From Raja brachyura (Eukaryota), in contig OY740794.1 in the NCBI GenBank assembly GCA_963514005.1, positions 15,686,001-15,750,000 of the forward strand: a DNA stretch of 64,000 nt. The letters run 5' to 3'. The position numbers were made by a program, and so were the translations under genes. The first letter of the stretch is position 1, and each line of letters opens with the position of its first letter. Below the pieces are notes generated by a model. It saw only the letters and a program-made list of their open reading frames with translations, searched no databases and was not told where the DNA came from. Of the stretch, positions 7,361-42,932 are shown one piece after another.

Positions 7361-9437
7361 TCCTGTTTCTCTAGCATTTTTGTCTACCTTCGATTTTCCA
7401 GCATCAGCATTTCCTTCTTAAACACAAAAAGCTGGAGTAATTCAGCGGGTCAGATAGTATCTCTGGAGAAAAGGAATAGGTGATGTTCCGAGTCGAGACC
7501 CTTCTTCAGACTCTTATTTTGTATCTATCTTTGGTTTAAACCAACATCTGCAGTTCCTTCCCACACATGATGTGTGTAACTATTGAGTTGCAACTGACTG
7601 AACGCTGTGTTCGGGTATAATTATCATAATGAACATACCTTTCCAATCTACTTCTATGTTGGAATGTACATGACTTTCTTGGAACTTTGTCTGTTTGCAG
7701 TGCAAAAAGCAGGTCAGTGTGAGAGCCATGATATGAAGAAAGTGTTTGATGTTTTTTTCTTGGTGAGGGTGGCTGAAATTCTCAGAGGTTTCATTCAGTG
7801 GATATATGTAAGGTGCTTATCTACTGTTATTACTGTAACAGCAGAGAGATTAAGGAATGTTTTCCATGTATGATCCTTCCTCCCTTCTTCTCCACTCTTA
7901 TGCTATTTTGTTTCTCCCACAGCATCACTTGCTAACAATGTTTAATAACTCAATCCATTCATGTTAACTCTGCAATCAATAGACAATAGGTGCAGGAGTA
8001 GGCCATTCGGCCCTTCGAGCCAGCACCGCCATTCAATGTGATCATGGCTGATCATCCCCAATCAGTACCCCGTTCCTGCCATCACCCCATATCCCCTGAC
8101 TCCGCTATTTTTAAGAGCCCTATCTAGCTCTCTTGAAAGCATCCAGAGAACCTGCCTCCACCGCCCTCAATCGTAACACCTGGCACTGGAGTGTGACCTC
8201 AAGGCTCCTCATTGCCAAAGTATTGCCATCCTTTGCATTTGAGTGAATAAAACTGGCAACTAATGACAAATATTGTGCTCAGTGCAAATCAAATTTGAAA
8301 TGCTTCAGAGAGGTGAGATAATGTGTTTCCTCCCTGTTCTAGGACTTCTCTATCACTGAATGAATTAAGTCACTGGCCAAAGGACTGTTTACACACAATG
8401 ATTGTGATTAATGATTGAACATCTTGTGTTGAAGGAAATAACATTTTTGTGTGAGAGTAGTCACGTTTAAAAATAAAAAGAGGAATTTTCTTCCTAACCT
8501 TACTTTAGTTTCTAGAGCTTAGATTCTCTTCTAGAATCTAATTAAAATATATCAAATATTCATTCAAAAGAAAATTAAATTGTATTAGATTAGCAAATGA
8601 ATATTTCATTAATTTGAAATTTATTAAATTTAATTAATTTTTGTTTGGTAGATTCAAGTTGCTTTTTGCTTTGAAAAAAAATCTTGGTTCATTTATTTAT
8701 TCATGTGGCCAAAGGTTGAAAAGCAGTCAATGCAAGTTTGGAAATAAATATCAAGGAAGGAATTTGGATGGAATTTCTTTTTCACATAATCATAAATAGG
8801 CTTCTTGAATAAGTCACTAAGTACATAAGGACTAAACTGACAGAAAGGTGCGCTTTTTTGAGAAGGTAACAGGGATATTGTAATACGGAAAAAAAGTTTG
8901 GATTGCTCTAGGAAAAAACAAAGACTCAATGGACCAAAAAGGTCTTCTCTTATGTTGTAAGAAATGTAATGTAAGCTATCTACATTTCTATAAAAGCCCT
9001 TGCTACCTGCACAATGAATCTAAAGCCATGATTCTCAACTTGAGATGCACATGGAAAACGGAAGACCAAAGATTGACAAGGTTCCACATGCATTTAATAA
9101 TATTTGGGCGATTTCTCTGGAAAGTTCACCAAAAATGCACTGTTTTCCATCTGGACCCGCAATAGTGTTGATTGATTGATTGATTGAAAGATGCAGTATG
9201 GAAATTAGCTCTTCGAGCCAACAGGTCCACGCCGACCATTGATCACCTGTTCACACTAGTTCTATGTCAACTCACTTTTGCAACCATTTCCTGCATAGTA
9301 GGGGCAATTTACAGCAGTCCAATCAATTTACAAGCCTGCACATTTTTAGGATGTGGAAGGAAACCGGAGCATCCAGAAGAAACCCACACAACCATAAGGG
9401 GAAACACACAGATAGCACCCAAGGTCAGGATTGAATC

Positions 9438-37350: not shown

Positions 37351-38589
37351 TCTAGGACTCGAGGGAGAGTTGGCCATCCATTAGGGCTCATGGGGCCTAG
37401 TCTATGATATTGACATTCTATCTGTACCATTTTCCAAAATCATTCCAGTATGTCTTAATTCCCCTCATGTCCAGAAATATATTAAACTCTGGTTTGAACC
37501 AACACCATGACTGAATTTCCTCTGGCCTCCAAAGGTTCACCAGTGGCAGCATAAAGAAATTTCTCCTCATTACTGAATGGTCCTTATTCTCATATTCCTT
37601 TCACTGGTCCTAGACTCCTCAGCCAGTGGGAAACATCTTCCTTGCATCTAAATTTTCAAGCCGCTTAAGATTGTATTATATTTTAAAGAGATCGCCTCTC
37701 TGTCTTTTTTTAAATTCTAGCACTTACAGTCCCAGTCTACACAATATTTCTTCATTCGGTAAACTGGGCCTCTCTGAAACCGGCCGATTGAATCTTTAAT
37801 GCCCTCTGGCAAAATATATCTTTCCGTAACTAAGGAGACCAAAACTCTACGCAATACGCCAAGGCTTTATACAAATTTAGGATGGCACAGCGGTAGAGTT
37901 GCTGCCTAAGCTGCAAAGAACCAGGTTCAATCCTGACTACAGGTGCTGTCTGAACGGAGTTTGAGCATTCTCCCTGTGACCTGCGTGGGTTTTCTCCGGG
38001 TGCTACGACACTCCAATTACGTACAGGTTTGTAGGTTAATTGGCTTTGGTAAAAAAAAAATTGTCCCTTGTCTGTGGGATAATGTTAGTGCACGTGGTGA
38101 TTGGTGGTTGGCACGGACTCAGTGGGCCGAAGGGCCCGTTTCCACGCTGTGTCTCTGAAGTCTAAATGCAAGACCCTTGTATTCAAATCCACTTACAATT
38201 CCCTAAAGTGCTTATTGCAACTATATGTTGGCTTTCAGCAACTTTTGGTTTGTGAACTGCACATAGGACTGGAATAATGAGATTCATACTTGCTGCACCT
38301 TTTCAAGCACATGAAATGCAAGAACACAAAAAATAAACATTTAATAAATTGGTGCGTAAGCCCCATAGTTTACTACTCAAACTAACAAAGCAGCTGCATC
38401 ACATTCTTAACTCAAATCTTGGCAAAACAAGGCCTTCAGCAGATTGAAATGTAAAGTTGTCGCACAAAAGATTTATTTCTCACTAAACTAAATCCCTGTC
38501 ACACGGGAGCCCTGGTCCCCCAATGCAACCCGTTCCCCAACGCAATATTCCACCACCCACCCATAGCCCCCACCTGCGCAGGCGCGGCT

Positions 38590-39340
38590 CATTTCCCCTC
38601 ATCCCCCGGAACTCCCTCCCCCTCCTCTTTATCCTCCCTCTTCTTTCCCCTCTCCTCCCCAATCCCTCCCTCACCTCTCCCTCCCTCTCCTTTCCCCTAC
38701 CCTCAGTCACTCCCTCCCTCCCTCCATAACTCCTCTCCCCTCCCTATCCCTTTTCCTCTATCCCCCACTCCTCGCCTCCCCTTATCCCCCCCCACTATCC
38801 CTCCTCACCTCCCCCACTTTCCCCCTCTCCCTCCCGACCCCTTCCTCTCCCTCAATCCCCTCCCTCCTATCTCTCCAGCATCTTTCCCCTCTCCTTCTCC
38901 CCTCCCCCATCCATCCCTCACCTCTCCCTCCCTTTTCCCTACCCTCAGTCACTCCCTCCCTCCCTACCTCCCTCCCTCCATCCATAAAAAGCATCATCTG
39001 CAGTTCCTTCCTCCATTGTTAGATGTGGTTTAGATCCCGTTGATGACGATTGGACCAGTTTGCATCACGTGTGTGAGTTAATCAAACGGCACACAAACTA
39101 CTCGGCCACCCTGCAACCCAACTCTCCCTCCCTCCCTCCCTCACTCTGCCCATTATGGCTGGGCCGCCGCTCGGCCTATCCCCGTCCTGCCCGCCCGCCC
39201 GCTGCTGCCGCTCTGCCCGTCCCTACCCTGCCCGCCCGCCCGCTGCTGCCGCTCTGCCCATCCTTACCCTGCCCGCCCGCCCACTGCTGCCGCTTGGCCC
39301 GTTCCCGCCCTGCCTGCCCACCTACATGCCTGCCAGCTGC
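38590..39340. repeat. CT-rich low-complexity tract and ~35-bp GC-rich tandem repeat inside the Helitron-like element
   Basis: Duplicated ccctcacctctccctcc...taccctcagtcactccctccctccc block; ccgctgctgccgctctgccc...ccctgcccgcc repeated at 39175-39330. Confidence 0.8.
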
Positions 39341-39358
39341 CGCCGTGGGTTGGGTGAG

Positions 39359-39436
39359 ATGGAGTTGGTGATCATCATGGTGGGCACCACGAGTTTCGAT
39401 GAGCTGGTGGAGAAGATCTACGAGAAGGCCATGAGG
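39359..39436 (+). pseudogene. ALG13: Captured ALG13-like exon 1 fragment: MELVIIMVGTTSFDELVEKIYEKAMR, followed by a GTGAGT donor
   Basis: VGTTSFD[DE]L is the N-terminal signature of ALG13 (human MKCVFVTVGTTSFDDL, recalled). Ends at a phase-0 consensus donor; no further ALG13 exons seen. Confidence 0.72.
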
Positions 39437-40679
39437 GTGAGTTACCGCTACAGCTGCGGCGGAGGAGACGGACCCGGGGGGACTGGTAGACGGGACCTCC
39501 ACTGCTGCAGCAGGTGGGAGAGAGGGGTGAGTGATGAGGGAGAGAGAGAGATGGGACCAGGGCCTTCACTGGGCCTCCACTGAATCCTCCCCCCCCCCCC
39601 ACGGCCGCCACCAGTGGTGGGAGAGACAATAAACAATTTACTGTGAGGAGGGGAGAGAGGAGTTTGTGAGTGAGGCGGAACAGGCCGCCACCGGTGGGGC
39701 AGGAAGTGGTGTCGCCATCCCGGCCTTGGCATTGAATGACAGGAGAAGAGACCAATCTGTGTGGCACTGACTGAAGGAATCAGCGCACGCGCGGGTTTTA
39801 AGATTTCTTAAACCTCGATAACTTTTACAATATAGCGCTTATCCGAACGGAACTTGTTACACTTGCAGCACAGGAGAACGGTGCGTAACCTGGTGAAAAA
39901 CCGTAGCTCTATCGCGTACCGTTTTTGTACAAATAGAAAAACCCCGAAATCCGGAAGAGCACAAGAGCACAGGATCAGAGTTTTAGTCATGTATAGATAG
40001 ATATCACCATTGTGGCAAATTCAGGGTATGGCTTTACTGCCTTGAAGCATTTACAGTCAGGCATTAACAGAAATTACAGAGAATGAAGTCTTATCTACAA
40101 ATAATATCTGGTGATACCATCTCATATGAGAGCACAGCCAATCTGAATCGTTCGAACCATACAATTGTACCATAGCCTTCTGAAGAGAATGAACAATTTC
40201 ATCATGATCTGGGTAACATTATAAGAAGTAGCTGATAATGGACCAGGAACTCAGGTGTGGCTGGCATGTAATTTTGTGTTCACTTTTAATAAAAATTTGC
40301 AGCTCGAAATTCGACTGCTGCAGAATCTTGATTATGAAGCCAACCTCTTTGCAAGAGCTCCCAAAATTAATATTTAAGCAGAATGAAGCAATATCATTGT
40401 TTAGTTGTAGTTTAGCAAATCAGCATGGAAACAGGACTTTCGGCCCACCGAGTTTCTGCCAACTAACGATCACCCACACACTAGTCTATCCTACACACTA
40501 AGGACAATTTACAGAAGCCAATAACAGACATTTACAGAACGTATAAACTTGCACCTGTTTGGATTGTGGGAGGAAACCAGAGCACCTGGAGAAAACCCAT
40601 GCATACACAGGAAGAATATACAAACTCCGTACAGACAGCACCCATGGTCAGGATCGAACCCGGGTCTCTCGGGTTGTAA

Positions 40680-40947
40680 AGGGCCTGTCCCACTTGGGCG
40701 CTATTTGCGCGCCATTTACGCGACTTCATTTATGTGTCACGATGCATGACGCGTCACCATTTACACATCACGCGTGCGTCGTGACGCGCGCATAGTGTGT
40801 GCATTACACGCGCATGGCGCGTGGTAAAACGTGGTGGCATAGGCAGTGACGCGCACTCGCGTGCGGCGCCCCAGGATTTTGGGATTCACAAAATCTTTGC
40901 ATGCCATCTGCTTGACGCGCAAATGACCCCCAAGTGGGACAGGTCCT
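40680..40947. mobile_element. PIF/Harbinger-type MITE, copy 4 (largely palindromic)
   Basis: TAA|agggcctgtcccacttggg ... cccaagtgggacaggtcct|CAA inside a SINE. Confidence 0.85.
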
Positions 40948-41402
40948 CAAGGCAGCAACTCTATCACAGAGTTTACAGGTAGGCAGGTTGCTGGCTTGTA
41001 ACCTCTCAGTTTTCTTTGGATCATGCTGCTTGGCTGTATGTAGAACGCTCTGAAATAATGGGTCTAGCCAAATGTTGGAAGATCATTAAGAAGTAGTAAA
41101 AAATAGCTTTGTTTGATAATGCCCCTCAATAGAGTCGGTGCTCGAAGAACTTCTATCATCAGATATTTAGAATACTTTCTAACTCTCTAACTCAAACATC
41201 TTGACATCAGATTCCATAACATTGTGCAGCACAGTATGAAAGGGCAACTCATAATTGTAAATCTTAATTACAATAAACTTTGACACTTGGTTCCATTTGA
41301 CTGGAATCAGAGAGCCTTTGTGCATAATAACATACTACCCAGTCATACTGTAGCTCAAAGTTTTCAATACGTAACAATATTTGTAATGTTTGTTTCTTCC
41401 AG

Positions 41403-41459
41403 GCCTGTACATGTAGTGGTAAATCAAACTGTTACTGTGATGGAGTGAAAGGCAACAAG
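41403..41459 (+). CDS. COL4A3: Collagen type IV alpha-3-like chain, exon 2 (7S domain): ACTCSGKSNCYCDGVKGNK
   Basis: ttcttccAG acceptor and GTAAGC donor; 57 bp, phase 0. CxCxxKxxCxCDGxKGxK pattern matches recalled human COL4A3 exon 2 (GCVCKDKGQCFCDGAKGEK, 57 bp) better than COL4A1 or COL4A5. Confidence 0.85.
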
Positions 41460-42842: not shown

Positions 42843-42932
42843 GGTGAAAGAGGGTTAATTGGTTTCCGGGGCCAACCTGGGTATCCAGGGTTTCCCGGTA
42901 CAGAGGGTCCACAAGGCCCAGAAGGTCACCAG
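42843..42932 (+). CDS. COL4A3: Collagen IV exon 3: GERGLIGFRGQPGYPGFPGTEGPQGPEGHQ
   Basis: tttcttttcAG acceptor, GTAGGA donor; 90 bp; ten Gly-X-Y triplets. Confidence 0.9.

Follow-up and report, generated by a model that had tools for sequence, protein, structure and literature searches.

A decaying Helitron transposon carrying the front end of the ALG13 gene lies within what appears to be the first intron of col4a3 in the skate Raja brachyura, where I believe that it is likely an inert passenger. The element captured an ALG13 exon, was amplified across the genome, came to rest in this intron with the exon in the orientation of the collagen gene, inherited its start and splice signals ready-made from ALG13 and has since decayed. 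The window, meaning the whole 64,000-nt stretch of DNA that was analysed (C14:15686001-15750000, contig OY740794.1), had been the subject of an original prediction that the captured exon might be spliced onto the second collagen exon as a chimeric alternative first exon, and the features on which this argument turns are as follows.

38483 to 40001, minus strand: non-autonomous Helitron of about 1.52 kb, assigned from the span common to sister copies, its ends and its A/T flanks
39015 to 39550, plus strand: captured ALG13 segment, reaching from upstream DNA through coding exon 1 into the beginning of intron 1, about -300 to +190 of the ALG13 ATG (limits approximate)
39155 to 39157, plus strand: upstream in-frame ATG (ATT ATG G), 94 open codons to the donor
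39359 to 39436, plus strand: first coding exon captured from ALG13, now of 26 codons, having lost one codon and gained 6 replacements relative to the family majority
39437 to 39442, plus strand: inherited ALG13 intron-1 donor GTGAGT, phase 0
41403 to 41459, plus strand: col4a3 exon 2, 57 nt, Cys-rich start of the 7S region, phase 0 on both sides
42843 to 42932, plus strand: col4a3 exon 3, 90 nt, Gly-X-Y

A gene fragment carried by a Helitron

Sister loci, judged from the best 40 of 585 candidates scored in a DNA search, share the span from 38493 to about 40003, and on the minus strand their termini have an A|TC start and a hairpin followed by a CTAG|T end. The 5' TC of the window copy, at its right end, falls at 40001 or 39997, blurred by a GATA repeat, and the sisters end likewise; at the 3' end (38483) the window copy has decayed, with TTAG in place of CTAG and the hairpin deleted. 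CTAG is retained in 12 of 29 sisters, all 12 of these ends abut the expected base, and a GGGACC...GGTCCC palindrome was seen by eye inside the 3' end in most of them. The window copy is flanked by A and T, which fits Helitron insertion without target duplication, and by these structural signs the element is a non-autonomous Helitron1. The exon lies within it (38483-40001), which bears out the earlier proposal that a transposon had delivered it. The genome also carries 96 matches to the Helitron_like_N (Rep) domain, and in three of the eight examined the same 3' terminus follows the Rep domain at a distance of 3.6-4 kb, correctly oriented; a shared 5' end was found within 10 kb upstream of the Rep domain in none of these eight. 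Elsewhere in the window there is a small MITE-like element at 40680-40947, whose 35-nt terminal inverted repeats are 86% complementary and whose interior is rich in CpG, and a CpG-rich stretch of decayed coding-like sequence at about 440-2900, which I take to resemble a tyrosine-recombinase (DIRS-type) retrotransposon.

The cargo is a segment of ~490 bp, antisense to the Helitron, that reaches about 300 bp 5' of the ATG; its limits were judged across 70 copies, of which 39 still align at -300 and one at -320, and 32 at +180 and two at +200. Genuine ALG13 lies on contig C13 (exon 1 ATG at 8803051, exons 2 and 3 downstream), and the element matches that locus at 74.6% over 366 columns (E 9e-61); the peptide of the captured exon is 63% identical to the genuine ALG13 peptide over 27 positions and shares 18 of 27 residues with the ALG13 N-terminus of Leucoraja erinacea (pairwise E 8e-9). 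The housekeeping gene that had been proposed as the source of the exon is thus confirmed at both the DNA and the peptide level. Scans of the 26-residue peptide returned 0 Pfam families and nothing below E 1.7 in PDB, and are uninformative because the query is too short. Two other origins were considered and rejected: the window exon is not the true ALG13 gene, that being the C13 locus where exons 2 and 3 also lie, and it is not a retrocopy, since the element includes the intron start and upstream genomic sequence. The presence of these flanks on either side of exon 1 means that genomic DNA was the source of the capture.

The genuine gene shows, by eye, a pyrimidine tract and CAG ~310 bp 5' of its ATG (L041:3520-3550), and this CAG could be the acceptor for an upstream non-coding exon; if it is so used, the captured piece would lack the promoter. 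At the corresponding place in the window copy, about 39010, 24 nt are missing. Shortly past the +190 capture limit, ALG13 intron 1 holds a GC-rich minisatellite of ~1 kb (L041:4085-5075, on C13), which is absent from the Helitron copies.

Start and splice signals within a collagen IV intron

Every element of the junction that had been predicted was recovered when the sequence was re-checked: the ATG at 39359 stands in the context GAG ATG G and opens 78 nt, or 26 codons, the donor AGG|GTGAGT has its boundary at 39436/39437, and the collagen acceptor before 41403 is a pyrimidine tract with CAG in phase 0. Joining 39359..39436 to the 57-nt exon at 41403-41459 keeps the frame, and a co-oriented, in-frame splice to collagen exon 2 is feasible, as had been claimed. 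Two in-frame ATGs further upstream, at 39155 and 39326, had been overlooked, and the 94-codon frame that begins at the first of them was rejected as meaningful, given that an upstream frame open for at least 60 codons is found in 47 of 69 sisters and an in-frame ATG upstream in 21 of the 69. A sigma-70 promoter scan gave 0 sites and has no relevance to vertebrate promoters.

The host gene is identified from its surroundings. All nine collagen exons that were checked in the window have lengths divisible by 3, and NC1 exons on the same strand follow at 15.842-15.848 Mb, about 92-98 kb beyond the window, one of them with 97% identity to the Leucoraja erinacea 'collagen alpha-3(IV) chain-like' protein (next match 76%); PDB scores resolve the alpha1/3/5 class from alpha2/4 only. 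Upstream, at 15.468-15.480 Mb, the opposite strand bears another NC1 locus of collagen IV, as in head-to-head pairs. Strand and position suggest that the NC1 exons and those of the window are continuous, which would make the host col4a3. The collagen IV NC1 loci number six, as three divergent pairs on C6, C13 and C14, and ALG13 shares contig C13 with one of these pairs.

In a scan of the window and the 30 kb upstream of it, the true exon 1 of col4a3, which would encode the signal peptide, is predicted at C14:15676869, 9.1 kb upstream of the window, with 22 codons, a phase-0 GTGAGT donor and a CpG-rich bin; it is a prediction among several phase-0 candidates, the others being at 7664, 7670, 9771 and 14554. 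A protein search for a homolog of the col4a3 N-terminus with exon 3 and its read-through gave 30 candidates, none with E <= 1. The peak hydropathy of the predicted exon 1 is 3.02, with one charged residue, against 2.12 for the captured exon, where 8 of 26 residues are charged, and it is therefore likely that a chimera would have no signal peptide. Collagen IV chains need entry into the endoplasmic reticulum (ER), prolyl hydroxylation and NC1-directed trimer assembly, and a chimeric chain without a signal peptide would miss both ER hydroxylation and trimer assembly. An ALG13-col4a3 chimeric transcript may be possible, though I doubt that it is made, and a functional one would be most unlikely.

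The predicted col4a3 intron spans 50,468 nt, and on its sense strand AG|GTRAGT occurs in the captured donor only (three times antisense), which makes this a strong cryptic donor; under the looser GTRAGT, combinations of start, open frame and phase 0 number 11 in sense, two of them from the Helitron copy, and 3 in antisense. Such a donor could also interfere with splicing of the gene, if some cryptic acceptor within the C-rich repeat upstream of it were used and a pseudo-exon thereby entered some col4a3 transcripts. Five YAG sites lie 5' of the donor within 38980-39436, the nearest of which (39336) would yield a 100-nt frameshifting cassette, and in bat SGSM3 a NUBPL-carrying Helitron supplies both a cryptic site and a premature stop (PMC4224331). 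However, C predominates in the tract before 39336, where only 4 of 20 nt are T, and an insertion that disrupted col4a3 appreciably would probably have been eliminated; splicing interference of this kind is highly improbable.

Copy number, decay and selection

A 22-mer from the core of the exon matches the genome 240 times with at most one mismatch and 363 times with at most two, against 0 for a reversed-pattern control, and 363 is a lower bound on the number of sites that carry the exon core. The strict cassette ATGG...AGG|GTRAGT is found in 76 places, counting genuine ALG13 and the window copy, and after inspection by eye (one out of phase, four with an in-frame stop) about 70 are left. Of 29 copies chosen for their likeness to the window copy, 25 retain the ATG, the open frame, the GT donor and phase 0 together, as do 12 of 40 drawn by pattern from 100 listed places; an exon length of 78 nt is seen in 9 of 69 sisters. 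At C3:132638303-132641738, two near-identical captured exons stand in opposite orientation 3.3 kb apart, which suggests a local inverted duplication.

The signals exceed chance because they were inherited from a real ALG13 exon, and the fit to collagen follows from the phase 0 that every collagen exon has and in which ALG13 exon 1 ends as well; the in-frame fit is not beyond chance, and any sense-oriented copy with ATG, open frame, donor and phase 0 in any collagen intron is in frame. One could go further and see in the skate ALG13 Helitron a genome-wide exon-trap cassette of about 70 copies, the equivalent in a cartilaginous fish of bat HelibatN3, whose member in the window would replace the signal peptide in an ALG13-col4a3 chimera and so give a non-secreted alpha-3(IV) chain, or a decoy that tunes the output of basement-membrane collagen, and this I hold to be very unlikely.

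What the window copy has undergone since its insertion bears on whether its exon serves any purpose. All 6 substitutions by which the exon departs from the family majority are replacements, 4 of them being CpG transitions, and none is silent; one codon has also been deleted, which leaves the frame intact. Over the other 69 copies pN/pS is 0.74, and finding 0 silent among 6 changes has p = 0.20 under neutrality, so that the test is weak. No purifying selection on the exon was seen in this small set of sites. As for decay at CpG sites, changes have struck 9 of 36 CpG positions of the window copy (25%) but 5 of 117 others (4%; Fisher p = 0.0007), and in the sisters 524 of 2363 (22%) and 564 of 8074 (7%), from which the window copy does not differ (p = 0.69 and 0.36), and this CpG excess is absent from genuine ALG13 (3 of 32 versus 9 of 109, p = 1.0). 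The CpGs of the window copy have thus had no protection from germline decay, which has run at the rate of the sisters, and the pattern in both points to germline methylation, a state compatible with activity in somatic tissue. Over -250..+150 the window copy retains 29 CpGs (observed/expected 0.64) against 45 (0.84) in ALG13, and it is in the upper half of the 70 copies for CpG richness.

If the exon had been domesticated as an alternative first exon, it would give a functional alpha-3(IV) isoform, non-secreted or otherwise new, or a regulated decoy. It is in frame and co-oriented, has the strongest sense-strand donor motif of the intron, and some of its replacements render the first 7 residues more apolar; yet those replacements come with no silent change and a deletion, 8 of the 26 residues are charged, the ER-dependent needs of collagen IV chains are textbook knowledge, and a chimeric protein was absent among the matches of a protein search with a sister copy, in which the six proteins returned among 20 candidates were all true ALG13. 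This last point is a weak one. Domestication is extremely unlikely in my view, and the use of the window copy as an alternative first exon, which was the heart of the original prediction, finds no support where start, frame and donor are family-wide, purifying selection is not evident and CpG decay is that of the sisters.

The history that I favour, that of an inert passenger, begins with a Helitron family that took ~490 bp of genomic DNA from around the first coding exon of ALG13 and spread it to at least 363 places, presumably mobilised in trans by rolling-circle copying through RepHel elements that share its 3' terminus. The start codon, open frame and phase-0 donor arrived ready-made from ALG13, one copy landed with its exon co-oriented to col4a3, and germline methylation together with neutral drift would account for its present state. 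The normal col4a3 mRNA would then be spliced directly from the predicted exon 1, 50 kb upstream, to exon 2, with the captured exon skipped.

Relation to known systems

The gene capture is real and of a known kind, resembling the bat HelibatN3/NUBPL family. In HelibatN3 of Myotis bats the NUBPL promoter is accompanied by six codons and a donor; exon trapping by it was shown in HeLa cells, and three M. brandtii transcripts begin within such insertions (PMC4778049). Bat Helitrons preferentially amplified the 5' ends of genes, and HelibatN3 has about a thousand copies (PMC4224331). These bat findings lend some weight to a leaky version of the chimera, in which the captured upstream sequence would drive low-level transcription in some tissue, the donor would join exon 2, and a minor unselected chimeric RNA would result, whose product would likely be without a signal peptide, cytosolic and degraded. 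The intact ATG context, frame and strong donor and the residual CpG richness of the window copy speak for it as well, but its germline CpG decay is the same as that of its sisters, the bat rate is low (the three transcripts set against about a thousand HelibatN3 copies reported for the related M. lucifugus; PMC4224331), and the ALG13 promoter may sit beyond the captured piece, given the pyrimidine tract and CAG near -310. Such leaky trapping is, on balance, unlikely.

Helitron capture of the front ends of genes is known in bats and frogs, and here a skate family with ALG13 as its source is added. No paper was found for Helitron together with ALG13 or with Leucoraja, in a literature that was thin in subscription titles, and the phrase 'alternative first exon' with COL4A3 gave only seemingly unrelated work, judged by title or the start of the abstract. 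The window copy itself is important only if it is expressed; the about 70 cassettes of start plus donor form a testable set on Helitron rewiring of transcripts in cartilaginous fish.

The skate family is like HelibatN3 in being non-autonomous, in having picked up from a housekeeping gene its upstream region, first coding exon and donor, in its many copies and in its potential as an intronic exon trap; it differs in its source (ALG13 with 27 codons, as opposed to NUBPL with 6) and its host, a skate and not a bat, and whereas promoter activity and chimeric transcripts were demonstrated for HelibatN3, the skate ALG13 Helitron is known from sequence alone. Heli1Xen1 of Xenopus laevis (PMC12001565) is likewise a vertebrate non-autonomous Helitron with captured coding fragments, 17 of its 19 from the 5' ends of genes; but those 19 fragments are distributed over 64 insertions of a recent and probably active family, while the skate family has spread one fragment to at least 363 places, in copies that have diverged by about 4-7% at non-CpG sites.
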